Notes under the pieces: model-generated
Database searches by the model: none
The model's input: only the letters and a program-made list of their open reading frames with translations
What the model was told of the DNA's origin: nothing
Made by a program: the position numbers and the translations under genes
In this document: positions 6,018 through 62,812 of the stretch, piece by piece
How the letters are laid out: each line of letters begins with the position of its first letter
Numbering within the stretch: the first letter of the stretch is position 1
Origin: Dehalococcoidia bacterium
GTDB lineage: Bacteria; Chloroflexota; Dehalococcoidia; GIF9; AB-539-J10
Direction of reading: 5' to 3'
Assembly: GCA_023229725.1 (NCBI GenBank)
Contig: JALNYR010000001.1
Span: forward strand, 9,292-73,291
DNA length: 64,000 nucleotides

Positions 6018-6041
6018 GACTCTCGGCGAGGGCACGCCAGT

Positions 6042-13054: not shown

Positions 13055-13299
13055 GCCACCGCTCCAGGCACAAGCAGCAGCGCGCCATTCCCATGAAGGA
13101 GCTCGCACGGCTGCGGCGGGACAAGGTGCCCGACGAAGCCATCGAGCTTGCCTACGCCGCGCCGCTCGAGCCGTTCTCGCGTGAGCCGCTCCCGCTGGCG
13201 CCGATGGCGCGCGTCCACCGGCCCTCGTGGTTCGTCGACTTCTGGGCACGAGTTTGGGCCTTCCTCGTGGGTTGGCTCTATTCTGGAGGAGGAAGATGA
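13051..13299 (+). CDS. small hypothetical protein with hydrophobic C-terminus
   Basis: 82 aa. Ends WFVDFWARVWAFLVGWLYSGGGR. Confidence 0.5.
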   Translation: MSHRSRHKQQRAIPMKELARLRRDKVPDEAIELAYAAPLEPFSREPLPLAPMARVHRPSWFVDFWARVWAFLVGWLYSGGGR

Positions 13300-13784
13300 T
13301 CTGGCTTCTGTGGTTCCTCGTCGGCTTCGCGCTCGTCACGCTCATCGTGCGCGAGAGCATCTTCGCCTGGCCGCGGCGCTTCCTCTTCAACGTGCTCGGC
13401 TCGAAAGCGGGCGGCTGGCTCGCGTGCGGGCCCTGCGCGGCCTTCTGGGTCGGCGTCGCCGTCGGTGTCCCCGACGTGGGAATCCTCGCGCAGTGGCTTC
13501 CGGTGTGGACCATCAGCTCGTCCATCGCCGTCGCTGTCACAGGCCACGTCCTCGGAGGTCTGCTGCTCCTCGCCGCCGTGCGTCTCGTCCAGACGTTCAG
13601 CCACTCGACGCTCGCGGTCATCGCGGAAGAGGAAGCAGCGAAATCGCAGATGCTCAGAGGTACTCCCGTGGAACGAACTATGGCGATGTGGCAATCAACC
13701 ATGAACAACGCCATCGCGGCACAATTTCCTCTGAGTGGAGAGGTCGACGATCCCGACGATGACGATCCTGGAGGCCACGCATGA
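13296..13784 (+). CDS. polytopic membrane protein, DUF1360-like
   Basis: ATG 13296 after ggaggagg RBS (ORF track starts at 13227). ESIFAWPRRFLFNVLGSKAGGWLACGPCAAFWVG resembles the remembered DUF1360 C.xC..W signature. Confidence 0.5.
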   Translation: MIWLLWFLVGFALVTLIVRESIFAWPRRFLFNVLGSKAGGWLACGPCAAFWVGVAVGVPDVGILAQWLPVWTISSSIAVAVTGHVLGGLLLLAAVRLVQTFSHSTLAVIAEEEAAKSQMLRGTPVERTMAMWQSTMNNAIAAQFPLSGEVDDPDDDDPGGHA

Positions 13785-15610
13785 CCAAAGCAACAGAGAA
13801 GGAGCGAGTCGATAACGTCGTCGGCTCTGTCATGGAGAAGATGGGCGTGCCGCTCTCCGACGCGTCCGGCGTCGCGCCCGACTGGACGAAGCTGCAGGAC
13901 ATCGCTCGCGAGCTGCAGACCGTCACGGTCCACCTCATTCGTTTCGAGCGGAGCTCGTTCTTCACCAAATCCACGACGCCTATCGATGCGGGCACCTACT
14001 ACAACGTGCCCGTCGAGCGACTCCAGGTTGGCACTGCCGAGTGGATCTACGAGCAGGCCGGCGGGGGCGAGTACCGCGTCGAGGTCATCCATCCGACGAG
14101 CCCGAGGATGGGCCTGCTGACGACCTTCAAGGTGAACGTGCCCGGCGAGCCGCGAAAGCCGGCCCCGCTCGCCGCGAAGGAAGCCCTGCGGATGTCGACG
14201 TCGCAGGACCAAGTCCAGGGCCTCGCTCGCCAGTTCGCGTCGATGAACCCCGGCCTCTCCGAGATGCAGGCGCTCGAGATGGCTCAGAAGACGGCCGCGG
14301 AGAACCCCGCGCTCGCGTCGATGATGGTAGGTCAGGAGGATGAAATGGCTTTCGGTCAGCAGGGCGGCTTCAACGTGAACGGCATGATCCAGATGATGAT
14401 GGCCGAGCGCATGATGGAGCGGCAGGCCGCCCGCGAGCAGCAGTACAAGCCGCCCGCGGCGCCGCAGGAAGACCCAACGGTCCGGCTGCTCACCGAGCAG
14501 ATGCGCGAGATGAAGGCGCAGCTCGAGCGCGAGCGGGACGAGAACCGGCGGCGCGAAGAGCAGCGCGAGGCGCAGGCGAAGTTCGACCGCCTCGAGTCGA
14601 AGTTCGAGCTGCTGCTCCAGCGCCTCGACAAGCCGCAGGAGCCAAAGACCGACCCGACGGCGCTCGTGCTCTCGACGGTGCTCCCGGCGCTCACCGGCTC
14701 GCAGGAGCGCACCGCCGCCGAGCACGCGAGGGGCGCTGCGCAGCAGCTCGAGTTCATGAAGGCCATGGCCGAGAGCTCGAACCGCCGCGACCCAGCGCTC
14801 GAGAGCCTGCTCGCCCACATGCTCGACACGACGCGGCTCTCGATGGAGGCCCAGCAGCTTCGGCTGCAGGAGCCGGTGAAGAACGCCGAGGCGATGAACT
14901 CCATGATCGGCATGATGGCCGGCGTCATGCAGACCACGCACAGCATCGTCATGGCGCAGATGCAGGCCCAGCAGGGGAATCCTTTCTGGGACAAGCTCGC
15001 CGGCATCACCGACGCGCTCCCCGGTATCATCATGGCGCTCGCCTCGCCCGAGGTGGAGCACGGCACCATCGAGGCCTCCGGGCCGGCCGCGCCCGACGTG
15101 AGCGAGCAGGCCGCCGCGGCTCGGGTGCAGCAGATGCGCGCCGCCGACGCCGCCGCGCAGGCCGCGGCCCAGGTTCCGGCCGGCGCGCCGCCGCCGGCGC
15201 AGGTCGCGCCAGCCCCCGTCGAGCCGCCGCTACCCGCCACGGCCGGGCCCGAGCAGGCCGAGGACGAAGACGAGGACGAGGGCGACGACGAGCTGCCCGA
15301 GGACCCGATCGAGCGGGCGAAGATCGTGCTCGACATCTTCGGCCTCGAGGGCGCGGCCGACGTGCTCCTCAAGTTCGAGGACGCCGTCACGACGCTCAAC
15401 CTGTTCTTCTTCGAGGGCGCCGCGCCGAGCGTGCTGGGCGAGAAGTTCGCCGCGCTGCTCATCGGGGCCCCCGACATCACCTTCGACGTCTCGGGCGACC
15501 AGCTCGTCCGCACCGTGCGCGAGCAGTTCGGCTGGAACCCGCAGCGCTCCGGAAAGTTCGTGAAGGCTTTCGAGGAGGCACTCGCCAAGGCCGCCGCTCC
15601 GGCGGCGTGA
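13781..15610 (+). CDS. large hypothetical protein (beta-rich N-domain, Met/Gln-rich and coiled-coil middle, acidic stretch)
   Basis: 609 aa. MIQMMMAERMMERQAAREQQ, KAQLERERDENRRREEQREAQAKF, EDEDEDEGDDE. No portal or terminase motifs seen. Confidence 0.7.
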   Translation: MTKATEKERVDNVVGSVMEKMGVPLSDASGVAPDWTKLQDIARELQTVTVHLIRFERSSFFTKSTTPIDAGTYYNVPVERLQVGTAEWIYEQAGGGEYRVEVIHPTSPRMGLLTTFKVNVPGEPRKPAPLAAKEALRMSTSQDQVQGLARQFASMNPGLSEMQALEMAQKTAAENPALASMMVGQEDEMAFGQQGGFNVNGMIQMMMAERMMERQAAREQQYKPPAAPQEDPTVRLLTEQMREMKAQLERERDENRRREEQREAQAKFDRLESKFELLLQRLDKPQEPKTDPTALVLSTVLPALTGSQERTAAEHARGAAQQLEFMKAMAESSNRRDPALESLLAHMLDTTRLSMEAQQLRLQEPVKNAEAMNSMIGMMAGVMQTTHSIVMAQMQAQQGNPFWDKLAGITDALPGIIMALASPEVEHGTIEASGPAAPDVSEQAAAARVQQMRAADAAAQAAAQVPAGAPPPAQVAPAPVEPPLPATAGPEQAEDEDEDEGDDELPEDPIERAKIVLDIFGLEGAADVLLKFEDAVTTLNLFFFEGAAPSVLGEKFAALLIGAPDITFDVSGDQLVRTVREQFGWNPQRSGKFVKAFEEALAKAAAPAA

Positions 15611-15623: not shown

Positions 15624-15848
15624 ATGAAGAAGGAATTGAAGAAGGCGCCCACGATCAAGGACCGCATCGTTCGAGTGCTCCGGGGCCGCAAGCGGGGGCT
15701 CACACCCACCGAGCTCGGCCTCAAGCTCGGCTTTGAGAAGAAGCAGGCGAGCGCGCTGGTCGGCCCGGCCTTGAAGAAGCTCGTCGCCGAGGGCCTCGTC
15801 GACCGCCACAAGATCGGTCGCCGCGTCGAGTACGCCTGGGTCGGCTAG
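15624..15848 (+). CDS. small winged-helix DNA-binding protein
   Basis: 74 aa. LTPTELGLKLGFEKKQASALVGPALKKLVAEGLVDRHKIGRRVEYAWVG. Confidence 0.55.
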   Translation: MKKELKKAPTIKDRIVRVLRGRKRGLTPTELGLKLGFEKKQASALVGPALKKLVAEGLVDRHKIGRRVEYAWVG

Positions 15849-15885: not shown

Positions 15886-16410
15886 GTGAAGCTGCACCGC
15901 ATTCGCATCAGAAACCAGCGGGATCGCATCCGGTTGATCGAGGAGCAGGTCAGGGAATCGCTCTACGGCGACGATTTCACCGAGCTCCGCTACGAGGTCT
16001 CCCCGAACCGAGCCCTCGCTGGCGTGCCGGCGCGAGACGACGAAGCGCAGGCGCGAGCCGTCTGGTCCTGGGTAAGAGAGAAGGTCCTGTACGTTCCCGA
16101 CCCGTGGCCCTTCGACCTCTTTCCCACGGCCGGCGCGGTGCTCGACTACGGCATGGGCGACTGCGACTGCCACACCATCGTGAACTGCACGCTCCTCGCG
16201 ATCCTGGGCTTCCCGGTCGGCGTTCGGATGATCCAGGCCGACGACGGCTTCTGGCACGTCTACTCGACCGTCTGGCTCCCGCGGGACGTTCCCACGCACG
16301 CCGTGGCGTTCGACACCGCCTGGGACGGCGCCGAGGACATGGGCGAGGAGTTCCCCCACGACCGCGTGAAGAACTTCGACGAGTACGTGCTCGAGCTGCG
16401 ACAGGGATAG
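15886..16410 (+). CDS. transglutaminase-like cysteine protease superfamily protein
   Basis: 174 aa. DYGMGDCDCHTIV (Cys), FWHVYS (His), FDTAWD (Asp) in the order and spacing expected for the C-H-D triad. Confidence 0.55.
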   Translation: MKLHRIRIRNQRDRIRLIEEQVRESLYGDDFTELRYEVSPNRALAGVPARDDEAQARAVWSWVREKVLYVPDPWPFDLFPTAGAVLDYGMGDCDCHTIVNCTLLAILGFPVGVRMIQADDGFWHVYSTVWLPRDVPTHAVAFDTAWDGAEDMGEEFPHDRVKNFDEYVLELRQG

Positions 16411-16422: not shown

Positions 16423-18621
16423 ATGAGTCTCAACAGGTCAGACAACGACGGCGGAACCTGGGGCATCGCGATGACGTCGCACGGACCGCTCGACATGACG
16501 CAGTCGAAGTCGGACGGAACCCCGGCGATCTTCTCGAAGCACCAGGGGCTCAAGCCGTTGGGCGATGTGAGTCGCATCCGCGCGTTCATCAACGAGTGCA
16601 TCGAGAACGCGAAGCGGGCACAGGGTGGTGTGCTGCCGCAGGTCATTGAGATGGAGGTTTCGGACGGCCACGGGGGAGTCGTCTCGGAGCATCTGCTCGT
16701 TCCGGTGGCGCTCGGTTCGACCACGATCCTGACGCTGCAGCAGGCCGCGGCGACAGGAATCGGCGCCTTCACCGGGGTCGTCTCGCGTCTGGAGGACGTG
16801 AGCTATCTGCGGCAGGCCTCGGTGTATGAGGGGATGTTCCGTGCAGAGCATCCGGACGCGGACGAGGCCGCGGTTCGCACGGCGCTCGCGAAGTTCCGGC
16901 AGGACAGCGGCACGACAGAGCCGAACCCCGCCGGGATGGAGGAGGAGCTCCGGGGCATGCTGGTCGCGGATGGCGCGACGCCAGATGCCGCGCGAGCCAC
17001 CGTCGCCCAGGCAACCTCCGCGCTCCGCGGCAACTCCGACGACGTGAGCGCGCTCACGACCACGCAGAACTATGCCGCCCTCGCGACGGTGCTCTCCTCG
17101 GTGGCGTCCGTGTCCCTCACCGCCGCGATGGAGGAGCCGGACTATCTCCAGGCGAACGATAAGCTCGACACGGCAGTGCGAGTGCTCAACACGATCACCA
17201 CGGTTTTCGACGCGGTCTCTGCCATCTCGTCGCTCGTGTCGGCCACCGGAGCTGGTGCCATCGTCGCCGTCGTCTTCGAGATCCTCGCGCTCGTCTGCCG
17301 GTTTATCACCTGGCTGCTCGACGTGATCCGGGACTACACGATCTCGCCGCTCGAGGGCTGGGACAAGGAGTGGGACGGCACCGACTGCACGCTCATCTTG
17401 AAGGAGCGGCTCCGCATCCTCGTCCAGATCGACGAGACCATCATCGACAGCTCGGCCACGGGCTGGCAGAAGCACTGGGCTGACGCGATGGAGCGGTTGG
17501 GCCACAACGCGGACGCTCAGTTCAACCTGCTCACGAACATGATCTACGACACGGCCTGGGCTCGCGGTGAGGAGCGGATCGCGGCGGCGAAGGCAATCGC
17601 GCAGACCCTGGGTGGCCGGGCCGCGACGAAGTCGTTCAACGAGTGCGATGACATCGCGAACTGGCTCGGGTACATCGGCGTGCCGGCCGACGACGTGTAC
17701 ACCATCCGGACGTGGCTCTACGAGGCCCGGAAGGTCACGGTCGTGCAGGCTCGGCGGAACCGGCTGCGCAGCATGGTGGGCGACGCGCCGCATGGCGGCG
17801 TGAGCGGGTACGGCGTCGAGTACACCGGCAACATGGTCAACTACCTTCACAGCGAGGGGAAGGACTGCCCGAACGATCGTGAGTCTCGTTGCCACGTCCT
17901 GGGAGGCGATGGGTACTACTGCCAGACGAACTTCCGGGCCGGCGCAGACCCCTGGTATCGGGACTGCCGGAACATCGACATTTCCAGCAGCTCGCAGTTC
18001 GTGCCGTTCTCGATCCAGCAGCTCGACGCGCTCTGGGATGAGCTCCGAAACAAGCTCCGCGTGTCTCGCTCGTGGCCGGCGCCGGTCAGCCCGCCGCTCA
18101 CCTTCAAGGACTTCATCCTGTCGGCGCCGCGGCAGCTCTCGCTCTTCAAGATGCTCGCCCCGGGCGCGAGCTCGGCGCAGATCGACCAGTTCGCCATCCT
18201 CGACGTCGGCACTCCGCAGTATCGCCGCGCCGCGGTGGTCCTCCGCGGCGTGCCCGACTCGGTGCTCGCGCCCGAGGTCATCTCAGCGAGCCGACGCATC
18301 ACGGCCGGCGGCGAGACCATGCGGCTGTGGTGGGCCGACACGTGGTTCATCTCGAACGGCACGGTCTTCCTCTACGTCCATTACCTTCCTGTGGACGCCG
18401 GCAGGCGCGGCTACGTCGCCGAGGGCATCCCCGCTTCGGACTCGTTCCTGCGATCGGCCTCGGACGCGGACCTGCAGCGGAAGCTCTACGACCAGCTCGG
18501 CATCGGAACGATGTCTGGTCTGAGCGGTACGAGCGGCTCCGGGGGAGGCGGCGGGACCGCGCTCGTCGTGGGCGGCGCCGTCGTGGCCGGTATCGCCGCT
18601 GCGCTCCTCCTCAAGAAGTAG
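16423..18621 (+). CDS. large protein with internal hydrophobic segment and C-terminal membrane anchor
   Basis: 732 aa. GAGAIVAVVFEILALVCRFITWLL internal segment. Ends GSGGGGGTALVVGGAVVAGIAAALLLKK. Confidence 0.7.
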   Translation: MSLNRSDNDGGTWGIAMTSHGPLDMTQSKSDGTPAIFSKHQGLKPLGDVSRIRAFINECIENAKRAQGGVLPQVIEMEVSDGHGGVVSEHLLVPVALGSTTILTLQQAAATGIGAFTGVVSRLEDVSYLRQASVYEGMFRAEHPDADEAAVRTALAKFRQDSGTTEPNPAGMEEELRGMLVADGATPDAARATVAQATSALRGNSDDVSALTTTQNYAALATVLSSVASVSLTAAMEEPDYLQANDKLDTAVRVLNTITTVFDAVSAISSLVSATGAGAIVAVVFEILALVCRFITWLLDVIRDYTISPLEGWDKEWDGTDCTLILKERLRILVQIDETIIDSSATGWQKHWADAMERLGHNADAQFNLLTNMIYDTAWARGEERIAAAKAIAQTLGGRAATKSFNECDDIANWLGYIGVPADDVYTIRTWLYEARKVTVVQARRNRLRSMVGDAPHGGVSGYGVEYTGNMVNYLHSEGKDCPNDRESRCHVLGGDGYYCQTNFRAGADPWYRDCRNIDISSSSQFVPFSIQQLDALWDELRNKLRVSRSWPAPVSPPLTFKDFILSAPRQLSLFKMLAPGASSAQIDQFAILDVGTPQYRRAAVVLRGVPDSVLAPEVISASRRITAGGETMRLWWADTWFISNGTVFLYVHYLPVDAGRRGYVAEGIPASDSFLRSASDADLQRKLYDQLGIGTMSGLSGTSGSGGGGGTALVVGGAVVAGIAAALLLKK

Positions 18622-18714: not shown

Positions 18715-18864
18715 ATGGCGAAGTCGAGGAAGCGCAGCACCCGGTGCAAGAGCATCGGCGTCCGCAAGATCTGCATGCGGCCGGCGAAGGGCGGACGGAA
18801 AGTGTTCTGCAAGTGCCCCGGCAGCAGCAAGCCGCGTCGGCGTGGCAGGGGCAAGCGGCGCTAG
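18715..18864 (+). CDS. tiny basic Cys protein (STRCK...CM...FCKCP type)
   Basis: 49 aa: MAKSRKRSTRCKSIGVRKICMRPAKGGRKVFCKCPGSSKPRRRGRGKRR. RBS gaaggaggaagag. Paralog of 23109..23282. Confidence 0.6.
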   Translation: MAKSRKRSTRCKSIGVRKICMRPAKGGRKVFCKCPGSSKPRRRGRGKRR

Positions 18865-18920
18865 CGCGTCGCGATCACAGGCGAACTCGAGAAGAACGAA
18901 GGACAGCGAGGTAAGGACAC

Positions 18921-19364
18921 ATGAAGGGTCAGCGAAAGTTCTCGACCTCCGGCACCTCGTACCTGAGCCTCGCGGACGCGGGGCTGGGTGCGGCGGCCGG
19001 ATTCCTGGTTCCGGTGGTGGCGAACAAGTTCATGGAGTCGTGGACGACGAAGCCCACGTTCGTCGCCGACAACCAGTCCATGGTGGCGGCAGCCATCGGC
19101 GTCGCGGTCGCGATCCCGGTGTACTACTGGCGTGGTCTCGCCCCCGCGATCATCGCGGCGGCGATGGCGCTGGTGTACGGCATCGGGCCGCAGATCACGA
19201 CCTGGGTCAACGAGCTCGGCCAGAGCGGGTTCGGCGGCGCCCAGATGGGCTCCGGGCGCGCGGTGGGCCTGCTCCAGCAGGCGTCGCGCCAGCGAAACGC
19301 GGTGGGTGCGTTGCAGTCCGTGCCGCGCCGTCGTTCGAGGGAGTTCGCCGGGCACTCGGACTGA
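18921..19364 (+). CDS. membrane protein (three hydrophobic helices)
   Basis: 147 aa. GLGAAAGFLVPVVANKF, MVAAAIGVAVAIPVYYW, LAPAIIAAAMALVYGIG. Confidence 0.65.
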   Translation: MKGQRKFSTSGTSYLSLADAGLGAAAGFLVPVVANKFMESWTTKPTFVADNQSMVAAAIGVAVAIPVYYWRGLAPAIIAAAMALVYGIGPQITTWVNELGQSGFGGAQMGSGRAVGLLQQASRQRNAVGALQSVPRRRSREFAGHSD

Positions 19365-19419
19365 GCGCACGGTGACGTGAGAGTCTGAAGAAGGAAAAGA
19401 AGGAGAAGAGGAGAAGATC

Positions 19420-20025
19420 ATGGCTTACACACCGTTCACCGTGAAGGACGCCGGCGGGCGACCCATTCCCGTCGAGGACTATGTCGATAGGCAGGTCTGG
19501 TCCGGCGCCAATATCGCGAGCTCGGCCTCGGCCGACGTGACCATGTTCAAGTTCAGCAAGGGCGAGTCCGTCGCCGCTTCCGGCACCGCGAGCGCGGTCA
19601 CCGGCGACTTCCGCCACACCAACGTGCAGTACAAGGGCACGATGCCGCAGACCGATGGCCTCGAGGTCAGGACCGTCGCCTACGAGTTCCCGCCCGATGT
19701 GACGCTCACCGCGCTGCAGCAGCTCTCCGAGCGCATCTGGACCGAGTTCTATTTCGGTTCCGAGCGCCCGAGCTACGCGTTCCTCGCGCGCCACGCGCCG
19801 CCTGGCACCGGCCTCTGGGGCGTCACGACGGTCACGGCCGTGTCGATGTACAACGTCGGCGAGCCCAACCCGTCGCACCGCCTGAAGTTCAACATCCCGC
19901 TCATCCTGCGCCCCGGTGACCAGTTCCGCGCCGACATCCGCATCCAAGGCGGCGCCCTCACGACGGCCGCGGCCGACGTGTTCATGCGCCTCGTCCTCCG
20001 TGGCTCCGGCCCGACCGCCGTCTGA
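19420..20025 (+). CDS. beta-rich structural-type protein P1 (single module)
   Basis: 201 aa. Preceded by an unusually long purine-rich leader gaagaaggaaaagaaggagaagaggagaagatc. C-terminal LKFNIPLILRPGDQFRADIRI...FMRLVLRG motif is shared with P2 and P3. Confidence 0.7.
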   Translation: MAYTPFTVKDAGGRPIPVEDYVDRQVWSGANIASSASADVTMFKFSKGESVAASGTASAVTGDFRHTNVQYKGTMPQTDGLEVRTVAYEFPPDVTLTALQQLSERIWTEFYFGSERPSYAFLARHAPPGTGLWGVTTVTAVSMYNVGEPNPSHRLKFNIPLILRPGDQFRADIRIQGGALTTAAADVFMRLVLRGSGPTAV

Positions 20026-20066
20026 GCAGCCCGCTCGGTCGTCGAAACCCCACCAGCCACTTCAAG

Positions 20067-20096
20067 TTCCCCCGCGCGAAGACATCGCTCTACACT
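20067..20096 (+). promoter_or_regulatory. candidate leaderless-type promoter (-10 TACACT, 6 nt, ATG 20103; weak -35 TTCCCC)
   Basis: TACACT 20091-20096, then tctcgc and ATG. Confidence 0.35.
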
Positions 20097-20102
20097 TCTC
20101 GC

Positions 20103-20897
20103 ATGACAGAGCAGCGTTACTTCGTCCCGTGGGCCCAGGCGGAACAGATCGACGTCGCAGCGAGCACCTACTTCAAGAACAGCTCGCCGTCGCTCTGGAA
20201 GAACAACCTCGACCAGCCGATCCACGTGACGCATCTGCTCGTCGACTCGAACAGCGTCACGACCGCGTCGATCAAGGTGGGCAAGCAGGGGCGCAGCCGC
20301 ATCGTCGATTCCTACGTCTCGACGCTCGCGCTCCACAACATCGAGCGGCTCTCGAACCAAGCGACCGACAGCGCGGCGCCGCTCTGGAAGTTCGACAAGC
20401 GCTACCCCGTGATCGTCTCGCCGCAGCAGATCTTCCAGGTCGAGATGACCGATCTGGCGGGCGCCATCCGCTACGTGAACGTCCAGTTCCACGGCTACCG
20501 GCTCTGCGACCCCTCCGAGCCCGTGGTTCTCGCGGAGCGGGTGACCCTCGCGTCCCTCGGGAACATCACCGCGCTCGTCAAGACCGACCCGAAGAGCCCC
20601 ATCATCATCACCGACTTCGGGTTCTACTGCGAGGAGACCGGCACCGCGGCGCTGCTCCGCGGCTTGAAGACGCGCGTGACTGAGGGCGGCCTGCCGCCTT
20701 GGATGAACATGTTCATTCGCGGCACGGTGCTCTTCCCGAACCGGCAGGGCGGCGCGGCCATTCTCGAACTGGCGCCCGACGATCTCTTGATCCAGCCCGG
20801 TGAGGTGCTCGAGTTCGAGGTGATCGACACCTCGGCCGCGGCCGTGACGGTCTACGTCGGCGCGGTGGGCTACACGGAGGATCGGAGGAGTCGATGA
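20103..20897 (+). CDS. beta-rich structural-type protein P2 (two modules)
   Basis: 264 aa. Mid LWKFDKRYPVIVSPQQIFQVEM...VNVQFHGY and C-terminal ILELAPDDLLIQPGEVLEFEVI...VTVYVGAVGY repeat the P1 motif. Confidence 0.7.
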   Translation: MTEQRYFVPWAQAEQIDVAASTYFKNSSPSLWKNNLDQPIHVTHLLVDSNSVTTASIKVGKQGRSRIVDSYVSTLALHNIERLSNQATDSAAPLWKFDKRYPVIVSPQQIFQVEMTDLAGAIRYVNVQFHGYRLCDPSEPVVLAERVTLASLGNITALVKTDPKSPIIITDFGFYCEETGTAALLRGLKTRVTEGGLPPWMNMFIRGTVLFPNRQGGAAILELAPDDLLIQPGEVLEFEVIDTSAAAVTVYVGAVGYTEDRRSR

Positions 20898-21757
20898 CGA
20901 CGCCTCGGCTAGACCAGGGGCGGTGGCTCCCGAACCTGCAGATGTACGCCGGCAGCACTGTCGCGGTGAACGCCGCGGCGAAGACGTTCCCTGGTGAGGT
21001 CGGCGTCTCGAAGGACCCGCTCAAGAACGACACGCAGTCGCCACTGATCGTGCGGGCGTTCTCCTGCACCGTCGGCTGGACGATCGCGCGGGCCAGCGTC
21101 GCAACGCCGCTGATCTTCGACGTGACGGTCAACACCATGCGCCGCGGGAGCTACAAGATCCAGCAGCAGAGCGTGCAGTACGCGCCGCACGTGAACTTCG
21201 TCACCGGGCTCTACGGCTCGCTCAACACGGCCGTGCGGCCCTACGTGTGGAAGTTCGCCGTGCCGGCGCTCCTCCAGCGCGGAGAGACGATCCTCTTCGA
21301 GTACGGCAACGTTTCGAGCGAGTCGGTCTTCGTGTGGTCGAGCTCGCAGGCGAAGGCCTCGAAGTACAGCATCCGCTGCCGCGGCAAGGTCACAGGCGAC
21401 CTCGTGCTCTTCGGCGGCGGCGGGACGCCCACGGCAGGTGACCGCCTCGTCGGCGTCCACCAGAACCTTACCGACGAGGACCTCGAGATCCTCTCGGTGA
21501 CGATGGTGGTCGGAACCGCGACCTCCGACCGGCCGATCTTCAACATGGAGATCGCGGGCCGCCGCATCTCCCGCGGCGAGCGCCCCTTCTGGCTCTTCGC
21601 CGAGCCGTTCACCTACGGGCGGTTCCTCTTCGACCGGCTCCCGGAAGGCGGGCTCGTGCTCATGCCGGGCGACAACTTCGAGGTCTCCGTGCAGAACCCG
21701 CAGTACACGAGCCTCACCGTGACGTTGGGCCTCGAGGCCTACCAGCAGGTGACGTGA
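20894..21757 (+). CDS. beta-rich structural-type protein P3 (two modules)
   Basis: 287 aa. VWKFAVPALLQRGETILFEY...SIRCRGKV and FLFDRLPEGGLVLMPGDNFEVSV...LTVTLGLEAY. ATGA overlap with P2. Confidence 0.7.
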   Translation: MTTPRLDQGRWLPNLQMYAGSTVAVNAAAKTFPGEVGVSKDPLKNDTQSPLIVRAFSCTVGWTIARASVATPLIFDVTVNTMRRGSYKIQQQSVQYAPHVNFVTGLYGSLNTAVRPYVWKFAVPALLQRGETILFEYGNVSSESVFVWSSSQAKASKYSIRCRGKVTGDLVLFGGGGTPTAGDRLVGVHQNLTDEDLEILSVTMVVGTATSDRPIFNMEIAGRRISRGERPFWLFAEPFTYGRFLFDRLPEGGLVLMPGDNFEVSVQNPQYTSLTVTLGLEAYQQVT

Positions 21758-22026
21758 TGCAGACGAGGACCTTCAACATCGCGCCCGGCGCCGCGGAAGA
21801 GATCGTGCTCGACCGCCCGGTCGCCATGACGCTGCTCATGACGAGCGACGACGACGTGGCCTGGCTCATGACCACCGAGGGTCCGCTCGACGTCGAGCGG
21901 GCCGTGCGCCTCGACAAGTCGCAGTGCCCCTTCACCAGCATTTGGGATGGGCTCCTCGTCATTCACTCGCCGTCGCAGGGCAGCCGCACCATTCAGGTAT
22001 CGCTCGCCATCGGAGGTGCCGCGTGA
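21754..22026 (+). CDS. small beta-rich protein
   Basis: 90 aa. FNIAPGAAEEIVLDRPVAMTLLM resembles the P1-P3 motif. Overlaps both neighbours. Confidence 0.6.
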   Translation: MMQTRTFNIAPGAAEEIVLDRPVAMTLLMTSDDDVAWLMTTEGPLDVERAVRLDKSQCPFTSIWDGLLVIHSPSQGSRTIQVSLAIGGAA

Positions 22027-22853
22027 GCTGGCGAACGTGGCTGCGGCAGACCGCCATCCGGCTCGGAATCGCCGAGCAGGGCTCGATCGCCGTCGAGGAC
22101 GGGCTCGACTACCTCGCGATGCTCGAGGAGCGGGCGAACGCGCTCCGCGTCGGCCTCCTCGAGACGGCCACGACGAGGCACCTCTACGTCGAGGAGGCGA
22201 CCGCCTACGACGTCGCCCGCGGCAACCTGCTCGCGACGACCAAGGCGATGCACTCGGAGCTCCTCGCGATGGGCGTGCCCGGCCAGCAGCTCCCGCGCGT
22301 CGTCATGCTCGGCCCGCTGCCCGCCGCCGTCCTCCAGGGCGTCACGCTCGCCCCGTCAGGCGCGATCTCGCCGGCCGCAGGCGGCGCGCTCGGCGCCATT
22401 CGAGTCGGGCCGCGCGGCGTGCCCGCGCACGTCTTCGACGCGGGCCCAGACACGGTCGGCGTGCTCAAGGGCCTCACCATCGGCGTCGCGGTCCAGTACG
22501 GGCTCGTGGTCATCGGCATCCTCGCCGCCGGCGCTGTGCTCACCTACTACCTGACGCGGCTCTTCAGCCCGGAGATTGCGCTCCAGCAGGCGGTCACGGA
22601 CCACGACCTGGGCGTCGCGGAGAACCTCCGCGACGTGCTCACCGAGTACGAACGAACGCGGCAGGCCGCGCTCGAGTCGGGCGTCGACCCGAACACGCTG
22701 CCGCCTCCGGACGTGAGCGGCTTCGCGACGCTCGCCACAGGAAATCCGCTCGCGGCAGGGCTCTCGAGCGTGAAGGGCCTCGCCATAGTGGCCTTCGCGA
22801 TCGGCGCGCTTTTCGTAGGGTACAAGATCTACAAGGACAGAAGGGAAGGTTGA
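22023..22853 (+). CDS. membrane protein with C-terminal anchor
   Basis: GTG 22023 (GTGA overlap; ORF track starts at 21924). YGLVVIGILAAGAVLTYYL, and ends GLAIVAFAIGALFVGYKIYKDRREG. Confidence 0.6.
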   Translation: MSWRTWLRQTAIRLGIAEQGSIAVEDGLDYLAMLEERANALRVGLLETATTRHLYVEEATAYDVARGNLLATTKAMHSELLAMGVPGQQLPRVVMLGPLPAAVLQGVTLAPSGAISPAAGGALGAIRVGPRGVPAHVFDAGPDTVGVLKGLTIGVAVQYGLVVIGILAAGAVLTYYLTRLFSPEIALQQAVTDHDLGVAENLRDVLTEYERTRQAALESGVDPNTLPPPDVSGFATLATGNPLAAGLSSVKGLAIVAFAIGALFVGYKIYKDRREG

Positions 22854-22855
22854 TC

Positions 22856-23083
22856 ATGGCACGGAGAAAAGGTGGCAAGTGGGCAGGCAAGCGGCGGTAC
22901 TGCGTGAGCGCGGGAGCGCCGGGCTTCGGGCAGCGGATCATGGCGTGCTTCTACAAGAAGTCGAACGCCACGAAGAAGTGCAAGGCGCTCCGCGCCTCCG
23001 GCAACCGCTGCAAGGTCATCGGCAAGGCGAAGGGCTCGCACGCCGGCCTGAAGTGCTGCTCGTGGCGGAAGAAGTGCCGGTAG
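22856..23083 (+). CDS. tiny basic protein, C-x6-A-x3-C-x6-G-x2-C-x-V family
   Basis: 75 aa from ATG 22856 inside ORF-track ORF 21947..23083. RBS gaagggaagg. Core ACFYKKSNATKKCKALRASGNRCKV. Confidence 0.6.
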   Translation: MARRKGGKWAGKRRYCVSAGAPGFGQRIMACFYKKSNATKKCKALRASGNRCKVIGKAKGSHAGLKCCSWRKKCR

Positions 23084-23108
23084 CCGTCTGCGGCTGAAGG
23101 AGAACATC

Positions 23109-23282
23109 ATGTCCAAGCGAAAAAGCACGCGCTGCAAGTACGCTGGTGTGACCGCGGCCGGAAAACCCTACTGCATGAAGCTCGGCCCGCGTGGCAGTGG
23201 CAAGACTGGGATGCGCTTCTGTAAGTGCCCCAAGTCGGTAGGCAGGCTCATGTCGCGCGACCCCTACGCCGGCTGGAAGTAG
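23109..23282 (+). CDS. tiny basic Cys protein (STRCK...CM...FCKCP type)
   Basis: 57 aa, below the ORF-track size cutoff: MSKRKSTRCKYAGVTAAGKPYCMKLGPRGSGKTGMRFCKCPKSVGRLMSRDPYAGWK. RBS gaaggagaac. Confidence 0.55.
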   Translation: MSKRKSTRCKYAGVTAAGKPYCMKLGPRGSGKTGMRFCKCPKSVGRLMSRDPYAGWK

Positions 23283-23308
23283 ACACTTCCACCTCGCTGC
23301 GCTACGAT
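23280..23308 (+). promoter_or_regulatory. promoter for leaderless mRNA (-35 TAGACA, 17 nt, -10 TACGAT, 6 nt, ATG 23315)
   Basis: TAGACA 23280-23285 (overlaps stop of upstream gene), TACGAT 23303-23308. Confidence 0.5.
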
Positions 23309-23314
23309 CCTCCC

Positions 23315-23521
23315 ATGGCAGTCCGCTACACGAAGCGCACGGCGCCGCGGAAGGGTGGCATCCTCGGGAACCTCCTCGGGCTCGTAGGAGACCTCGCTCT
23401 CTCCGCAGGCCAGAACGTCAAGCAAGCCGCATCGGCAGCCTCGGCCGGCCAGGTCACGCACAAGCCCTGCAACGCCTGCACGGCGCCCGCGGCGCCCCCG
23501 TCGAACGGCGGCGCCGCGTGA
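23315..23521 (+). CDS. small hypothetical protein
   Basis: 68 aa: MAVRYTKRTAPRKGGILGNLLGLVGDLALSAG... The ATG sits 6 nt after the -10-like hexamer. Confidence 0.5.
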   Translation: MAVRYTKRTAPRKGGILGNLLGLVGDLALSAGQNVKQAASAASAGQVTHKPCNACTAPAAPPSNGGAA

Positions 23522-23763
23522 GCCAGAACCCAGGGCCGGCGCAGCCGAACGAGCGGCGTGTCGAGGGCCGGTGCATGGCCTGTGGCTTCGAGGGCGATGT
23601 CATCGAGCGCACCATCGGCGCTGGGTTGAAGATCACGATGTGCGACCGCTGCTCGTTCGCCGGCCAGCAGGCGCTCGCGCTCGCGCAGACAGTGCGCCCG
23701 TTCGTCCCCATCGCGCAGAAGTTCCTCGGTGGTCTGCTGAACGCCATCGTGCCGCGCCGGTAA
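23518..23763 (+). CDS. small zinc-ribbon protein
   Basis: 81 aa. CMACG ... CDRC. Confidence 0.55.
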   Translation: MSQNPGPAQPNERRVEGRCMACGFEGDVIERTIGAGLKITMCDRCSFAGQQALALAQTVRPFVPIAQKFLGGLLNAIVPRR

Positions 23764-23813: not shown

Positions 23814-26243
23814 ATGAAGCACATCCCGACCATCTCGCTCGTCATGATCCACAGGCGCGCTGGAGACCGCCTTCTCGAAGCGGTGGGCTCCGCGCTCGAC
23901 CACGTGGACGAGGTCGTGCTCGTCGACACTGGGCCGAACGATGACGACGACGCCGCGAAGGCAGCGCGAAAGTACATCGCGCAGTCCATCGAGCCCGAGT
24001 GCGCAGCGCGCGGCATTAACTTCAAGCAGGTAAATTACCGCGGCCCCGAGTTCCTGCACGACGGCCGGCGCTACACGGCCGACTTCTCCGCAGCGCGGAA
24101 CTTCGCGCACGGCCTCGCGACGAAGGAGTGGGAGTTCTTCCTCGACGCTGACGACATCCTGCAGTGGGACGGCGATTGGAACCTCCGCAAGCTCATCTCC
24201 GAGGTCCACGCGAAGCACCTGGGCGTCGGCGAGATTTCGATGCCCTACGCCTACCAGCCGGGGCTCGAGCAGGATCGAGTGCGCCTGTGGAAAAGGTCGC
24301 TCGGCTGGGAGTGGCGCGGCGCGCTCCACGAGGAGCGGCACCCGCTCGCGCCGGGCCGGTTCACCCGGTGCCAGCTCACGTCGGACGAGGGCTTCTTCGT
24401 CGAGCACCGCGGTGATGGCAAGGCGAGCCACGCGCGGAACGCCGCGCTCCTCAAGCACCTGTGGGACACGGGCCGTTACGACGAGTTCACGCCGCAGATG
24501 GTCTGCGCGTTCTTTGCGCAGATGCTCGACTACAAATACCTGTATATCCTCGACCTGGAAATGCCCGAGGATGCGAGCCGTGACGCGCTCGCGCTCTTCC
24601 ACGCGCTTCGCGCCGAGGCCTGCCGCCGGCTCGGACGCGAGAACGACATGCTCGCCGAGCTGGGCGCCGCGGTCGCGCTCGCGCCGGACGACCGCGCCCA
24701 CTGGGCCGAGCTGGGGCTCGAGTGGGCCAGCTCCGGTCGGGACAACGCCAAGCCCTCGGCCGCGCTCGCGCTCAAGCATGCCTTTCTCGTTCTCCCCGAG
24801 ACGTGGCGCTACCTCGCGCCGACTGGTTGGTTCGAGGGCGAGGCGCGGGAGAAGGCCGCGCGGTTCCTCGCCGACGTCGAGGAGTACGGCGTTGCCAGCC
24901 ACATTGCCGCTGGCAACGACGCCGTCTGGCGAAAGGTGAGCGACGAGATCAAGGCACAGGAGCATCGCGTCCTGCGACGAGGGCGCAAAATGGTTGGGAC
25001 GCCGGTGCGCCGCTTCGACCGCATCGACTTCCTCGTTTCGAGCCCAGTAGAGGGCTGGGGCCCACTCTCCGACAAGGTCGTCGGCGGCTCCGAGCTCGCG
25101 GTTCTCGAGGTTGCGCCACGGCTCGCGCGGCTTGGCATCGAGACGCACGTCTGGGCGCTAGGCCTGGGCACCGACGACGTGGGCGCGAAGGAACACGCGA
25201 TGGGTGGGGGCGTTGTTCTCGGTGCTGCGACGTGGCATGACCTCGCCGACTTCGACCCCTCGACGCCAACGGGCGCCGTCGTCGTGTGGCGAGACGCGCG
25301 CCGCATCCCCGGCTGCCGGGGCTTCGGGCATCCCGTCTGGCTCTGGGCGCACGACATCCCCGAGGTCTTCGGCGCCGAGGGCCTCCACGCCGCCGACAAG
25401 GTCTTCGCGCTCTCGAAGCATCATCTGCGCCGCTTCGCCGAGCTCGGCGTGGACGAGGAGAAGCTCGTTCTCTCGCAGAACGGGCTCGACCCAGGTGACG
25501 TGCAGGAGGCGTGGGACGCCGTGGTCAAGAACGGCGTTCGCGACCCGCACCGAGCCGTTTACTGCTCCTCGGCGAACCGTGGGCTCATGTTGCTTCTCGA
25601 CGCCTGGCCGGCCATTCGACAGCAAGTGCCCGACGCGACGCTCGACGTCTGTTACGGGCTTGAGATGTTCCGGCGCCGCGACACGCCTCCGCGGCTCCGT
25701 GGCTTTGCAGACTGGGTCGAGCAGCGCTGTGCCACGCTCGAGCCCCAGGGCGTCATCTTCCGCGGCGCGACGCCACACGCAGACCTGTTGCGCATCCTCG
25801 GCTCCTCTGGCGTCTGGGCCTACCCTTGCGTCTTCGAGGAGATCTTCTGCATCGCCGCCATCGAGGCGCAGGCGATGGGCTGCTGGCCGGTCACGATCAC
25901 GTCGGCCGCGCTCGCGGAAACGGTACACGGGGGATCCCTCTTGCCGCTGCGACAGCTTCAGGACGAGTGCGACCTTTCCCCTGAGGAACGCGCACTCGGT
26001 GAGGTCTGGACGACCGTGCATCCCGCGAGCCGTGCCTACGTCGAAGCCGTCGCGAACGCGATGTTGAAACCTCCCTTCGTCGCAGACCGAGCCAACTTAT
26101 CTGCTTCCATGCTCTCCATCTACGATTGGGCTCACGTGGCCGCGCATTTCGCGCGAGCCCTTGAGATGGAGAAAAACAATGACGGCTCAAGCCAAGACCT
26201 CGCTCGGACCGCTCGTCTGCGTCGTGACCAACTGCTGCCTTGA
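23814..26243 (+). CDS. bifunctional glycosyltransferase (N-terminal GT-A/GT2-like, central helical region, C-terminal GT-B/GT4-like)
   Basis: 809 aa. ISLVMIHRRAGDRLLEAV...VVLVDTGPNDD...FFLDADDIL (DxD). GGSELAVLEVAPRLARLGIETHVWA ... EEIFCIAAIEAQAMGCWPVT (E-x7-E). Confidence 0.75.
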   Translation: MKHIPTISLVMIHRRAGDRLLEAVGSALDHVDEVVLVDTGPNDDDDAAKAARKYIAQSIEPECAARGINFKQVNYRGPEFLHDGRRYTADFSAARNFAHGLATKEWEFFLDADDILQWDGDWNLRKLISEVHAKHLGVGEISMPYAYQPGLEQDRVRLWKRSLGWEWRGALHEERHPLAPGRFTRCQLTSDEGFFVEHRGDGKASHARNAALLKHLWDTGRYDEFTPQMVCAFFAQMLDYKYLYILDLEMPEDASRDALALFHALRAEACRRLGRENDMLAELGAAVALAPDDRAHWAELGLEWASSGRDNAKPSAALALKHAFLVLPETWRYLAPTGWFEGEAREKAARFLADVEEYGVASHIAAGNDAVWRKVSDEIKAQEHRVLRRGRKMVGTPVRRFDRIDFLVSSPVEGWGPLSDKVVGGSELAVLEVAPRLARLGIETHVWALGLGTDDVGAKEHAMGGGVVLGAATWHDLADFDPSTPTGAVVVWRDARRIPGCRGFGHPVWLWAHDIPEVFGAEGLHAADKVFALSKHHLRRFAELGVDEEKLVLSQNGLDPGDVQEAWDAVVKNGVRDPHRAVYCSSANRGLMLLLDAWPAIRQQVPDATLDVCYGLEMFRRRDTPPRLRGFADWVEQRCATLEPQGVIFRGATPHADLLRILGSSGVWAYPCVFEEIFCIAAIEAQAMGCWPVTITSAALAETVHGGSLLPLRQLQDECDLSPEERALGEVWTTVHPASRAYVEAVANAMLKPPFVADRANLSASMLSIYDWAHVAAHFARALEMEKNNDGSSQDLARTARLRRDQLLP

Positions 26244-26454
26244 GGCGACCAGCATCGTCGGTGTCGCCCATGGCCTCTCGACCACTCCCGACATCATGGC
26301 CGTCCACAAGTACGTGTGGGCCGCGAACGTGACGCTCGGCACGCCCGTGTCGGTGTACGCGGACTCGACCACGCTCTACTTCAGCAACGCGAAGGGCGAC
26401 AAGGCCGTGCTCGTGGACGGCTGGGCCCAGGTGGTCCACACCCTCGTCCGGTAA
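26179..26454 (+). CDS. small hypothetical protein (start uncertain)
   Basis: ATG 26179 would overlap the glycosyltransferase gene by 65 nt. Alternative starts are GTG 26224 and ATG 26299. Beta-rich sequence VHKYVWAANVTLGTPVSVYADSTTLYFSNAKGDKAVLVDGW. Confidence 0.4.
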   Translation: MTAQAKTSLGPLVCVVTNCCLEATSIVGVAHGLSTTPDIMAVHKYVWAANVTLGTPVSVYADSTTLYFSNAKGDKAVLVDGWAQVVHTLVR

Positions 26455-26477
26455 CCGACTGCTCGCGGTCGGTTCAG

Positions 26478-26528
26478 ACGGCCCGTTTCAGGCATAGAAC
26501 CTCCTGCCTGGAGCGGGCCGTTTCATAT
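26478..26528 (+). terminator. intrinsic terminator candidate
   Basis: acggcccg-ttt-caggca / loop tagaacctcc / tgcctg-gag-cgggccgt, followed by ttcatat. Lies between 26454 and the promoter at 26539. Confidence 0.45.
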
Positions 26529-26538
26529 GCAACTCCAG

Positions 26539-26567
26539 TTGCATTCCGCGCATGACCCGACTACGCT
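26539..26567 (+). promoter_or_regulatory. promoter for leaderless mRNA (-35 TTGCAT, 17 nt, -10 TACGCT, 6 nt, ATG 26574)
   Basis: TTGCAT 26539-26544, TACGCT 26562-26567. Confidence 0.5.
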
Positions 26568-26573
26568 CGGGCC

Positions 26574-27338
26574 ATGTCGAACCTCTTGTCGATCTACTGC
26601 TTCTACAAGAACGAGCTGGAGTCGTTCGGCGTCACGGTGCCGACCTGGCTCCCCTTCTTAGAGGGCGGCGGTGAGCTGGTCCTCGTCGACACGGGCTCGA
26701 GCGACCGCTCGCGGGAGTGGGCCGGCGCGCTCGCCGCATCGCCGCAGGTAGCTGCTGCGGGCATCTCGGTGAAGTCGATGGGAGCGCCCTGGCCCGACCC
26801 GATGAACTGGGCCGCCATCACGCAGCAGACGATGGACCTCTGCTCGAGGCCCTGGCGGCTGCGGCTCGACGCCGACGAGAAGCTCGAGGGCGATCCCAAG
26901 GCGCTCGCGAGCGTCTTGCGGAACCTCGAGCAGCTCGCGGTCGACCAGGGCCACAGCGCGCGAGACGGGCTCCTCATGCCCGGCACGTGTCCCGTCGCGC
27001 TCTCGGGGCTCTGTGTCTTCCTCCACGAGCCTGAGACTGGGGTCGAGCAGTACCGCTCGAGGCTCCATCGCGCCGGCTGGACGTGGAAGTACCGCATCGA
27101 CCCGGTGCCAGTGCCGCCGCCCGGAGAGGAAGGCGGCGTCTTCATGCTGCTCCAGAACTGGATCTGCCGCGTCATCCACACGCGGGCCTCCATCCGGCCT
27201 GACGCGCTCGCCCGGGCCGAGGGCGTGCTCGAGCTGGCCGAGCAGCTCGACGGGCCCCTCGACGGGCCGGCGCAGGTCCACTACCAGAACGCCATCGATC
27301 GCGCTCGAATCTACGGGAAGAAGGAAGGTGAGATATGA
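26574..27338 (+). CDS. GT-A/GT2-like glycosyltransferase
   Basis: 254 aa. LSIYCFYKNELESF ... LVLVDTGSSDRS ... RLRLDADEKL. Confidence 0.55.
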   Translation: MSNLLSIYCFYKNELESFGVTVPTWLPFLEGGGELVLVDTGSSDRSREWAGALAASPQVAAAGISVKSMGAPWPDPMNWAAITQQTMDLCSRPWRLRLDADEKLEGDPKALASVLRNLEQLAVDQGHSARDGLLMPGTCPVALSGLCVFLHEPETGVEQYRSRLHRAGWTWKYRIDPVPVPPPGEEGGVFMLLQNWICRVIHTRASIRPDALARAEGVLELAEQLDGPLDGPAQVHYQNAIDRARIYGKKEGEI

Positions 27339-56504: not shown

Positions 56505-56567
56505 AGCTGCCTCGCAGTGCCAGATGCGGGCAACGGCTACCGTTTCCTCTCGGAAACGCCTGGCGCC

Positions 56568-61141: not shown

Positions 61142-61143
61142 GA

Positions 61144-61467: not shown

Positions 61468-61472
61468 GTGTC

Positions 61473-62811: not shown

Positions 62812-62812
62812 G

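Follow-up and report, generated by a model that had tools for sequence, protein, structure and literature searches.

Large bacterial virus genomes are assumed to belong to tailed viruses with an HK97 capsid and a terminase, and the tailless membrane-containing bacterial viruses known to us have genomes of roughly 10-20 kb. Here we analyze a 64-kb stretch of DNA (the window) from the 79,034-bp contig JALNYR010000001.1, in which a block of genes encodes beta-rich proteins (P1, P2 and P3), membrane proteins and very small basic proteins. We propose that this block is probably the virion module of a new lineage of tailless, membrane-containing jelly-roll viruses, a lineage known so far from its genes alone.

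Among the described jelly-roll viruses, P23-77 (VP16/VP17), SH1 and HCIV-1 (Helvetiavirae) encode two jelly-roll capsid proteins in adjacent genes, one small (~170-200 amino acids, aa) and one larger (~230-290 aa), and their conserved gene block starts with the packaging ATPase gene. In size, P2 (264 aa) and P3 (287 aa) of the block studied here are close to PM2 P2 and the other smallest capsid proteins of the double-jelly-roll kind. Viruses of the P23-77, SH1 and HCIV-1 type have an internal membrane (PMC6414509) and encode FtsK-HerA ATPases (PMC8812541). In Sulfolobus polyhedral virus 1 (SPV1), a jelly-roll shell surrounds an inner membrane, which carries sub-capsomer membrane proteins, and a nucleoprotein core; the virus encodes a glycosyltransferase (GT) and a methyltransferase (MT) (PMC8459092). 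Its capsid protein VP4 clusters at the base of the vertical single-jelly-roll group (PMC8812541). SPV1 and the Flavobacterium-infecting, lipid-containing phage (FLiP) are both without a packaging ATPase, and ATPase-less jelly-roll viruses have been discussed as early stages of capsid evolution (PMC8812541).

The window has a GC content of ~66% and ~75 genes, as judged by gene calling based on GC at third codon positions (GC3). About 15 kb of the contig lies beyond the window, and ~11 protein genes are located upstream of the window start (M0R22_00005-00055, judged by NCBI accession numbers). Scans with Pfam, PHROGs and NCBIfam covered most of the larger predicted proteins of the window and part of the small open reading frames (ORFs), and none of the scanned proteins matched a housekeeping family. 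By its gene content the contig resembles the genome of an autonomous virus: the window includes replication genes, an integrase, two tRNAs, apparent HNH homing endonucleases and membrane-anchored M23, SLT and GDSL hydrolases. The wall hydrolases (M23 and SLT here, PG_binding_1 in relatives) indicate a bacterial host. At NCBI the contig sits in a metagenome-assembled genome (MAG) named 'Dehalococcoidia bacterium'. The assignment of the contig to this bin is doubtful and, because of this, so is the identity of the host.

The block is the core of an undescribed family

All ORFs that had been listed for the block in a preliminary description of this DNA were recovered at the same positions, and each of them showed a strong, coding-type signal (GC3 0.87-0.94). 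Searches of 5.8 billion proteins identified 7 relatives of P3, 12 of P2 and 16 of P1, and an exhaustive profile search returned 21 representatives of the P3 family. The 12 homologs of P2 were 66-86% identical to it. At distant loci identity was 33-46% for P2 as compared to 24-34% for P3, and P2 was the best conserved of the three proteins.

Gene order was identical in every relative contig that could be read; about a dozen contigs from different metagenomes are involved, covering six or more divergent lineages, and the contigs of the family span 38-79 kb. The conserved order starts with a ~600-aa coiled-coil protein, a transglutaminase-like protein, a ~500-750-aa membrane protein, a tiny basic protein and a ~150-aa membrane protein. 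It continues with P1, P2, P3 and a ~90-aa acidic protein, and it ends with a ~265-aa protein with two transmembrane segments, small Cys proteins and giant glycosyl/methyl-transferases. In one relative (L007/L008) an HNH gene was inserted between P1 and P2 (L007 8649-9152).

Scans with a P2 pattern identified no relative in IMG/VR or in the GTDB representative genomes. A tblastn search of 50,697 phage genomes with P2 and with a 647-aa fiber-like protein, a 943-aa protein and the helicase of the window gave no match, nor did a DNA search of the block against phage genomes, and full-text literature searches turned up no description of such a virus family. A previously undescribed family of large, virus-like elements of bacteria has this block as its conserved core.

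P2 and P3 are full-length paralogs

P1 (201 aa, M0R22_00200) is encoded at 19420..20025, P2 (M0R22_00205) at 20103..20897 and P3 at 20894..21757, and they are followed by an acidic 90-aa protein (pI 4.5) at 21754..22026; all four genes are on the plus strand. The preliminary description had proposed a strand-turn-strand signature shared by these proteins, occurring once in P1 and twice in each of P2 and P3, with a related segment in the 90-aa protein. Pairwise BLASTP among P1, P2 and P3 gave nothing significant (E 0.03-0.2), so profiles were needed. Profile comparison bore out the relationship of P2 to P3, which are paralogous over their full length (hhalign E = 1.8e-10, and 1e-14 with a probability of 98% once divergent P2 homologs were added). 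The link to P1 did not hold: a shallow P1 alignment matched the C-terminal module of P3 (E 6e-5 to 2e-4), but with deeper profiles (7 and 16 sequences) the comparison of P1 to P2/P3 was not significant (E 0.015-0.024, probability 2-3%). The 90-aa protein had no detectable relation to P3 (E 0.29).

The N-terminal and C-terminal halves of P3 aligned in register (E 5e-4, probability 31%), which is at most suggestive of an internal duplication. The proposed arrangement of one module in P1 and two in P2 and P3 is proven for the P2-P3 pair alone. A regular expression derived from the five strand-turn-strand sites matched those five places and no others in six frames, a test that is post hoc and circular.

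The long form of P3, starting at 20894, is backed by conservation from residue 1, and this start overlaps the P2 stop in the manner of translational coupling. Overlapping stop and start codons run through P2, P3, the 90-aa protein (p90) and a 276-aa protein (p276), in the window and in all lineages, an arrangement that would fit a stoichiometric complex of the four products. There is neither a transmembrane nor an N-terminal hydrophobic segment in P1, P2 or P3. None of the three matched Pfam (E<=0.1), PHROGs or NCBIfam, and at the same Pfam threshold there was no match to PF11175 (DUF2961) or to carbohydrate-binding module (CBM) or lectin families.

Models of P1 and P3 are jelly-roll-type sandwiches

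Sequence and profile searches of the PDB with P2, P3 and the 609-, 732-, 943- and 663-aa proteins of the window returned noise only. We made AlphaFold2 models of P1 and P3 and judged their Foldseek matches on the best 50, which for P3 were the best of ~1500 in the PDB and BFVD. The P3 model (predicted local distance difference test, pLDDT, 88.8; predicted TM-score, pTM, 0.88) consists of eight strands followed by another eight strands, with almost no helix. It thus comprises two tandem 8-stranded beta domains, and the pTM implies that they form a rigid two-domain unit. P2, paralogous to it over the full length, is a candidate major shell protein. The best Foldseek matches of P3 were to VP2 of birnaviruses (infectious bursal disease virus and infectious pancreatic necrosis virus) and to nodavirus coat proteins (best E ~2e-6 and probability ~1, for VP2). 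Further down came cressdnavirus coat proteins, a CBM (2c26, probability 0.80), lambda gpJ and tail-fiber entries.

Birnaviruses and nodaviruses are, however, animal RNA viruses, and the matches had a TM-score of 0.2 and a root-mean-square deviation (rmsd) of ~20 A. Birnavirus VP2 also has two jelly-roll domains, but these are nested and stacked rather than tandem. As far as the model can tell, P3 resembles these proteins in the way that jelly rolls in general resemble one another, and the likeness cannot be taken as evidence for a relationship.

The P1 model is a single sandwich of lower confidence (pLDDT 69.6, pTM 0.67). Its top Foldseek match was an SPV1 capsid chain (6oj0_A, probability 1.0, TM 0.43/0.48, E 9.5e-3) and its second match was the other SPV1 capsid protein (6oj0_Z, E 0.056, TM 0.33-0.36). 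These were followed by single-jelly-roll coat proteins of plant viruses, human papillomavirus L1, PHM and C1q/TNF. We regard P1, a predicted jelly-roll-like single sandwich, as a candidate for a role in the capsid or as a penton; among the matches of its model we saw no penton protein, whether of the PRD1 P31 type or another.

Several points weigh against the interpretation of the block as a jelly-roll virion module. All matches of P3 had TM-scores of at most 0.24 with an rmsd of ~20 A, which amounts to local 3Di similarity only. The capsid proteins of PRD1, PM2, Sulfolobus turreted icosahedral virus and FLiP and the adenovirus hexon were absent from the best 50 matches of P3, and P23-77-type capsid proteins were absent from the best 50 of both P1 and P3. 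P1 has no sequence similarity to the SPV1 capsid proteins, and its structural match to them is weak (E 9.5e-3, or ~0.01, and TM 0.43-0.48, on a pLDDT-70 model). Jelly-roll sandwiches also occur in CBMs, tail fibers, C1q/TNF and PHM, all of which were in the match lists. Lastly, the ~15 kb (~11 genes) of the contig beyond the window could hold head genes.

The preliminary description had proposed that models of these proteins be compared with the capsid proteins of the PRD1, PM2 and P23-77 classes and with tail and baseplate families. The best matches were jelly-roll capsid proteins of other viruses. On the present models, the similarity of P3 is local and jelly-roll-generic with no global superposition; P1 and P3 appear to be jelly-roll-type sandwiches for which no known capsid family is shown as home.

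No tailed-phage hallmark or packaging ATPase was found

The preliminary description had recognized no tailed-phage structural motifs in any frame of the window. By sequence profiles only, no terminase, portal or HK97 capsid match was obtained with Pfam, PHROGs or NCBIfam among the scanned window proteins. The same was true of the protease/scaffold, tube, sheath, tape-measure, baseplate, Dit and Tal families. In the relatives no tailed-phage hallmark occurred within 10 kb of the block (precomputed Pfam).

A search for an FtsK/HerA-type packaging ATPase, which had been proposed as a check on the jelly-roll hypothesis, was negative in the 64-kb window, and no relative had a Walker-A ORF within 10 kb of the block. 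The sole Walker-A protein in the window is an AAA_25 replicative helicase. It also matched PHROG primase/helicase families and was rejected as a packaging ATPase for this reason. Since SPV1 and FLiP both lack such an ATPase (PMC8812541), its absence does not disqualify a jelly-roll virus. The hypothesis of a jelly-roll membrane virus made in the preliminary description therefore survives in part: the sandwich models with viral jelly-roll matches, the syntenic module and the absence of tailed-phage hallmarks from the scanned proteins speak for it, and the lack of a PRD1/PM2-type match among the best 50 and of an FtsK/HerA ATPase in the window speaks against it.

One alternative is that the element is a highly divergent tailed phage whose head genes are located in the ~15 kb beyond the window or have diverged too far to be detected. 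P1, P2 and P3 would then be beta-sandwiches of a tail tip, baseplate or receptor-binding apparatus, and a role as tape measure or in association with the tail would fall to the 609- and 732-aa proteins. The Foldseek matches to lambda gpJ, tail-fiber and 'tail protein' entries (E 1e-4 to 1e-3) are consistent with this, as are the fiber, LamG and hydrolase genes downstream of the block. In addition, a genome of at least 79 kb with tRNAs and HNH genes is typical of tailed phages, and one protein of the element, a member of phrog_1735, is common to 538 of them. In phage Bosa, however, the phrog_1735 gene is found amid nucleotide-metabolism rather than structural genes.

Other evidence makes a tailed phage unlikely. 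Terminase, portal, capsid, tube, sheath, Dit, Tal and baseplate matches were lacking among the scanned proteins of the window and within 10 kb of the block in relatives, and there was no Walker-A terminase candidate. Many Dit and baseplate structures have been solved, and none was among the best 50 Foldseek matches of P3. In two related contigs, an AAA_24 recombination ATPase, a proline-rich protein and an HD phosphohydrolase are encoded just past the exonuclease gene; therefore replication and recombination take up at least some of the DNA that precedes the window, which leaves ~8 genes for a head-tail set. Protamine-like proteins and several membrane proteins would also be unusual within a tail module.

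Membrane proteins, basic proteins and other genes of the block

The preliminary description had reported that the beta-rich proteins are interleaved with membrane proteins and tiny basic Cys proteins. This pattern is real and conserved. We infer every functional role assigned to these genes below, and all of them are on the plus strand.

The first gene of the conserved block (13227..13784) encodes a 185-aa polytopic membrane protein with ~3 hydrophobic segments, and homologs are in place in three relatives. It is followed by a 609-aa protein (13781..15610) with a small N-terminal beta-rich domain, a long Met/Gln/Glu-rich coiled-coil or low-complexity middle, an acidic tract and a C-terminal domain. 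This protein had no match in Pfam, PHROGs, NCBIfam or the PDB and has no Walker A motif. It was conserved in four relatives by blastp; in a fifth (L011) a 617-aa counterpart was assigned by position and length and then aligned. The 609-aa protein is a candidate scaffold or size-determining protein. A basic 74-aa protein (15624..15848), winged-helix-like by a weak MarR_2 match (E 1e-3), has a homolog in one relative. The next gene (15886..16410) encodes a 174-aa transglutaminase-like (papain-fold) cysteine protease or amidase. Its match to Pfam Transglut_core (E 1.6e-4) was just below the cutoff, a weak match to the same family was precomputed in four relatives, and the putative triad (the Cys of GDCDxH, the His of WHVY and the Asp of DTxW) is kept in seven lineages. 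We regard it as a candidate maturation protease. A 732-aa protein (16423..18621) contains a hydrophobic hairpin in its interior (~265-303) as well as a Gly-rich linker, and it ends in a membrane anchor. It has homologs in four relatives and no match in Pfam, NCBIfam or the PDB; in PHROGs it gave one weak match, to a family of unknown function (E 0.039).

Immediately upstream of P1 are two small genes. The first (18715..18864) encodes a 49-aa protamine-like protein (pI 12.0, 21 Lys plus Arg, no Asp or Glu, 4 Cys). In four relatives, translation at this position yielded equivalents of 40-47 aa that also have 4 Cys, and a 43-aa gene was placed by position in another (L014). Together the 49-aa protein and its equivalents are 40-49 aa long with a pI of 11-12, ~40% Lys plus Arg and no acidic residues, and the 49-aa protein is a candidate DNA-condensing core protein. 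The second (18921..19364) encodes a 147-aa polytopic membrane protein with hydrophobic segments, for which homologs of 37-77% identity are present in five relatives.

Downstream of P3, the start of the 90-aa acidic protein is coupled to the P3 gene, and an acidic gene of 88-102 aa occupies this place in every lineage. The 276-aa protein (22023..22853), with two transmembrane segments (~148 and ~242), is coupled in turn to the 90-aa gene and has homologs in four relatives. A basic 75-aa protein follows (22856..23083; pI 10.9, 23 Lys plus Arg, 7 Cys) and is 80-81% identical in the two relatives L001 and L002. A basic 57-aa protein with 4 Cys (23109..23282) looks, by eye, paralogous to the 49-aa one (STRCK...C-M...FCKCP); no homolog was found in the other loci compared. 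Two small proteins of 68 and 81 aa complete the set (23315..23763). The 81-aa protein has a zinc-ribbon-like CxxC...CxxC pattern; the pair is conserved in L001 and L002, and CxxC...CxxC proteins of 69-82 aa occupy the same place in four further loci (L005, L006, L007 and L011).

This inventory raises a second alternative, namely an enveloped or pleomorphic, non-icosahedral virion with a nucleoprotein core, in which P1, P2 and P3 would be matrix, nucleocapsid-coat or envelope-associated proteins. The many membrane and tail-anchored proteins and the protamine-like proteins could be explained in this way. So could the failure to find a packaging ATPase in the window or within 10 kb of the block in relatives, and the low TM-scores against icosahedral capsid proteins leave the architecture open. 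On the other hand, the top fold matches are to shell-forming jelly-roll capsid proteins, and both the rigid two-domain unit (pTM 0.88) and the tight coupling of the paralogs resemble capsomer-type proteins. Moreover, the ATPase-less jelly-roll viruses SPV1 and FLiP are icosahedral (PMC8812541). We therefore consider a virion without an icosahedral shell quite improbable.

Least likely of all is a non-virion role in which P1, P2 and P3 are lectin- or CBM-like beta-sandwiches that act with the neighboring glycosyltransferases as a surface-glycan or adhesion module of a mobile element: a CBM (2c26, probability 0.80) and PHM appear in the Foldseek lists, the block lies directly upstream of giant GT/MT genes, and DUF2961 and other double-jelly-roll proteins of cells are enzymes that act on carbohydrates (PMC8812541), but P1-P3 lack both DUF2961, CBM or lectin Pfam matches and hydrophobic N-terminal or transmembrane segments, they are co-conserved with protamine-like, scaffold-like and protease genes, the element has no housekeeping family among its scanned proteins, and no relative was found in the GTDB representative genomes.

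A proposed particle and its comparison to described viruses

In the virion module that we favor, the element would be a large (at least 79 kb), GC-rich, virus-like double-stranded DNA (dsDNA) element of bacteria with the block as its virion-morphogenesis core. A jelly-roll shell would be built by P1, a single sandwich, and by P2 and P3, each of which would have two 8-stranded beta-sandwich domains packed tightly against each other; hexamer-type capsomers and vertices would be divided among the three. The 185-, 147-, 276- and 732-aa membrane proteins would reside in, or anchor, a lipid layer beneath this shell. The extremely basic, Cys-rich proteins of 40-75 aa would condense the DNA into a nucleoprotein core, and this condensation would replace motor-driven packaging into a preformed head. 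It could be speculated further that the 609-aa coiled-coil protein serves as a scaffold or size ruler and that particle maturation is the task of the papain-fold protease. The giant glycosyl/methyl-transferases next to the block may glycosylate the particle surface, and the repeat-containing fiber and LamG proteins may bind the host.

The best functional analogy for such a particle appears to be SPV1 (Portogloboviridae), which has a VP4/VP10 single-jelly-roll capsid, an inner membrane and a VP1-DNA core, and whose capsid chains are the two best PDB matches of P1. The likeness consists in a shell over a membrane, a small basic protein that condenses DNA, GT and MT genes and the lack of a packaging ATPase, features that for the present element are read from its genes. 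SPV1 differs in its host, an archaeal hyperthermophile (Sulfolobales), and in its ~20-kb circular genome, as the genome here is at least 4 times larger. It also has no pair of two-domain paralogs like P2 and P3.

The double-jelly-roll capsid viruses may be similar in another respect, in that P3 is modeled as a rigid unit of two tandem 8-stranded sandwiches and is encoded alongside the single-sandwich P1 and membrane proteins. In contrast to these viruses, the element has two paralogous two-domain proteins instead of one, protamine-like proteins, a large glycosylation cluster and a genome several-fold larger than those of the bacterial members. None of their capsid proteins was among the best 50 Foldseek matches, and no FtsK/HerA ATPase was found in the window. 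As for the Helvetiavirae, the likeness lies in neighboring genes for small and larger jelly-roll-like proteins and in the best match of P1, SPV1 VP4, which stands at the base of their group. On the other hand, none of their solved capsid proteins was among the best 50 matches of P1 or P3, the FtsK-HerA ATPase that they encode was not found here, and the larger proteins here are a paralog pair with an apparent internal duplication.

Membership of Varidnaviria, Portogloboviridae, Bamfordvirae or Helvetiavirae is thus not demonstrated; several defining features of these taxa were sought and were not seen. We suggest tentatively, and with distinctly less confidence than the assignment of the block to a jelly-roll virion, that the family is a deep, separate lineage of bacterial dsDNA viruses with genomes of at least ~80 kb, a glycosylated, membrane-containing, tailless particle made from jelly-roll proteins of their own (a duplicated pair with two domains each and one single-domain protein), protamine-like zinc-binding mini-proteins and no packaging ATPase. 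By analogy, it could conceivably be a bacterial counterpart of the portoglobovirus-type architecture with four times the genome size, outside the defined families.

Leader and promoter-like sequences

P1 is preceded by a purine-rich leader with repeated GGAG/AGGA (19377..19419, plus strand), which is kept in three relatives. The preliminary description had called it exceptional, and it is the most purine-rich 40-mer of the plus strand of the window (0.90, as compared to a mean of 0.505 and a standard deviation of 0.079).

The sequence upstream of P2 is of a different kind. A -10-like hexamer, TACACT (20091..20096, plus strand), is located 6 nt 5' of the P2 ATG, and there is no Shine-Dalgarno sequence in 20091-20102. 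A TANNNT hexamer with identical spacing to the P2 ATG is present in four relatives. This layout is possibly that of a leaderless mRNA with TACACT setting the transcript start, and it suggests that P2, P3, p90 and p276 are transcribed as a separate unit; it may, in addition, be a hint that leaderless translation occurs in the host.

Surrounding genes

As the preliminary description had indicated, a glycosylation cluster and spike-like genes lie after the block. The cluster (23814..31258, plus strand) encodes an 809-aa protein with GT2 and GT4/GT1 domains, proteins of 97 and 254 aa, and a 1307-aa protein with TPR, methyltransferase and GT4 domains (Pfam), and it is located downstream of the block in all relatives. 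A 647-aa fiber-like protein (31224..33167, plus strand) carries at least 6 repeats at ~49-aa spacing (GD.VHL.TDL.RRLRV); it has no Pfam, PHROGs or NCBIfam family, and by eye its C terminus resembles a discoidin- or CBM-type domain. The same repeats occur in a second fiber-like protein of 352 aa (38851..39909, plus strand; 47% identity to the 647-aa protein, E 5e-28), which likewise had no match in these three collections. A tandem-repeat finder detected nothing in the fiber genes at the DNA level. Between the two fiber genes, a 391-aa protein (37660-38835, plus strand) has by eye two similar modules (VVFPAGSAPLSYTDLDLSAVVGA... and IVFPSGLSPTVLTDLDLSPAIGA...), a repeat that BLASTP self-comparison did not report.

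Also downstream of the block are genes for LamG proteins, an HNH endonuclease in a low-GC island, the phrog_1735 protein, a tyrosine integrase, membrane-anchored M23, GDSL and SLT hydrolases, tRNA-Tyr, tRNA-Met and a second HNH endonuclease. The HNH genes (34951-35751, plus strand; 59384-60058, minus strand) lie in low-GC islands (0.57-0.61 as compared to 0.66) and, like the one inserted in L007, look like homing endonucleases. A LamG protein (33518-34951) and the AAA_25 helicase (5988-7421) are also in low-GC stretches and may be recent acquisitions.

The phrog_1735 protein (546 aa, 43547-45187, plus strand) matches this family of unknown function with an E-value of 7e-100. Its relatives in the 538 tailed phages are 36-45% identical, and it is the sole strong tie of the element to known phages. 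In Xanthomonas phage Bosa its gene lies between ribonucleotide reductase and polynucleotide kinase/ligase genes. We considered it as a hidden terminase and rejected this, as Bosa has a separate terminase and the gene keeps the company of these nucleotide-metabolism genes. The tRNA-Tyr (GTA) and tRNA-Met (CAT) genes (56420-56642, minus strand) are located among orphan genes, 6 kb from the tyrosine integrase (49377-50264), and no att site or host flank was identified. At 60719-63939 (minus strand) a run of small orphan proteins each have a hydrophobic C-terminal segment and a basic tail (..GKKR, ..KKGRRR, ..KKPRRRR, ..WRMR), and they appear to be a family-like set of C-tail-anchored membrane proteins.

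Upstream of the block are genes for a DnaQ-like exonuclease, the 943-aa orphan, a helicase C-domain protein and the AAA_25 replicative helicase. The 943-aa gene (709-3540, minus strand) adjoins the exonuclease and helicase genes. Its product had no Pfam, NCBIfam, PDB or phage-genome match and a weak PHROG exonuclease match over residues 43-232 was its one signal; the protein may be a polymerase or primase that has diverged strongly.

Implications

If the block is indeed the virion module of a tailless jelly-roll virus, a bacterial case would join SPV1 and FLiP among the jelly-roll viruses without a packaging ATPase (PMC8812541). Virus detection would also be shown to have a blind spot, as searches of PHROGs, IMG/VR and 50,697 phage genomes turned up no relatives and the contig had been placed in a Dehalococcoidia MAG. 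The jelly-roll virion architecture in bacteria would be extended several-fold in genome size. Contigs of relatives recur in several public metagenomes, so the family can be put to the test directly.

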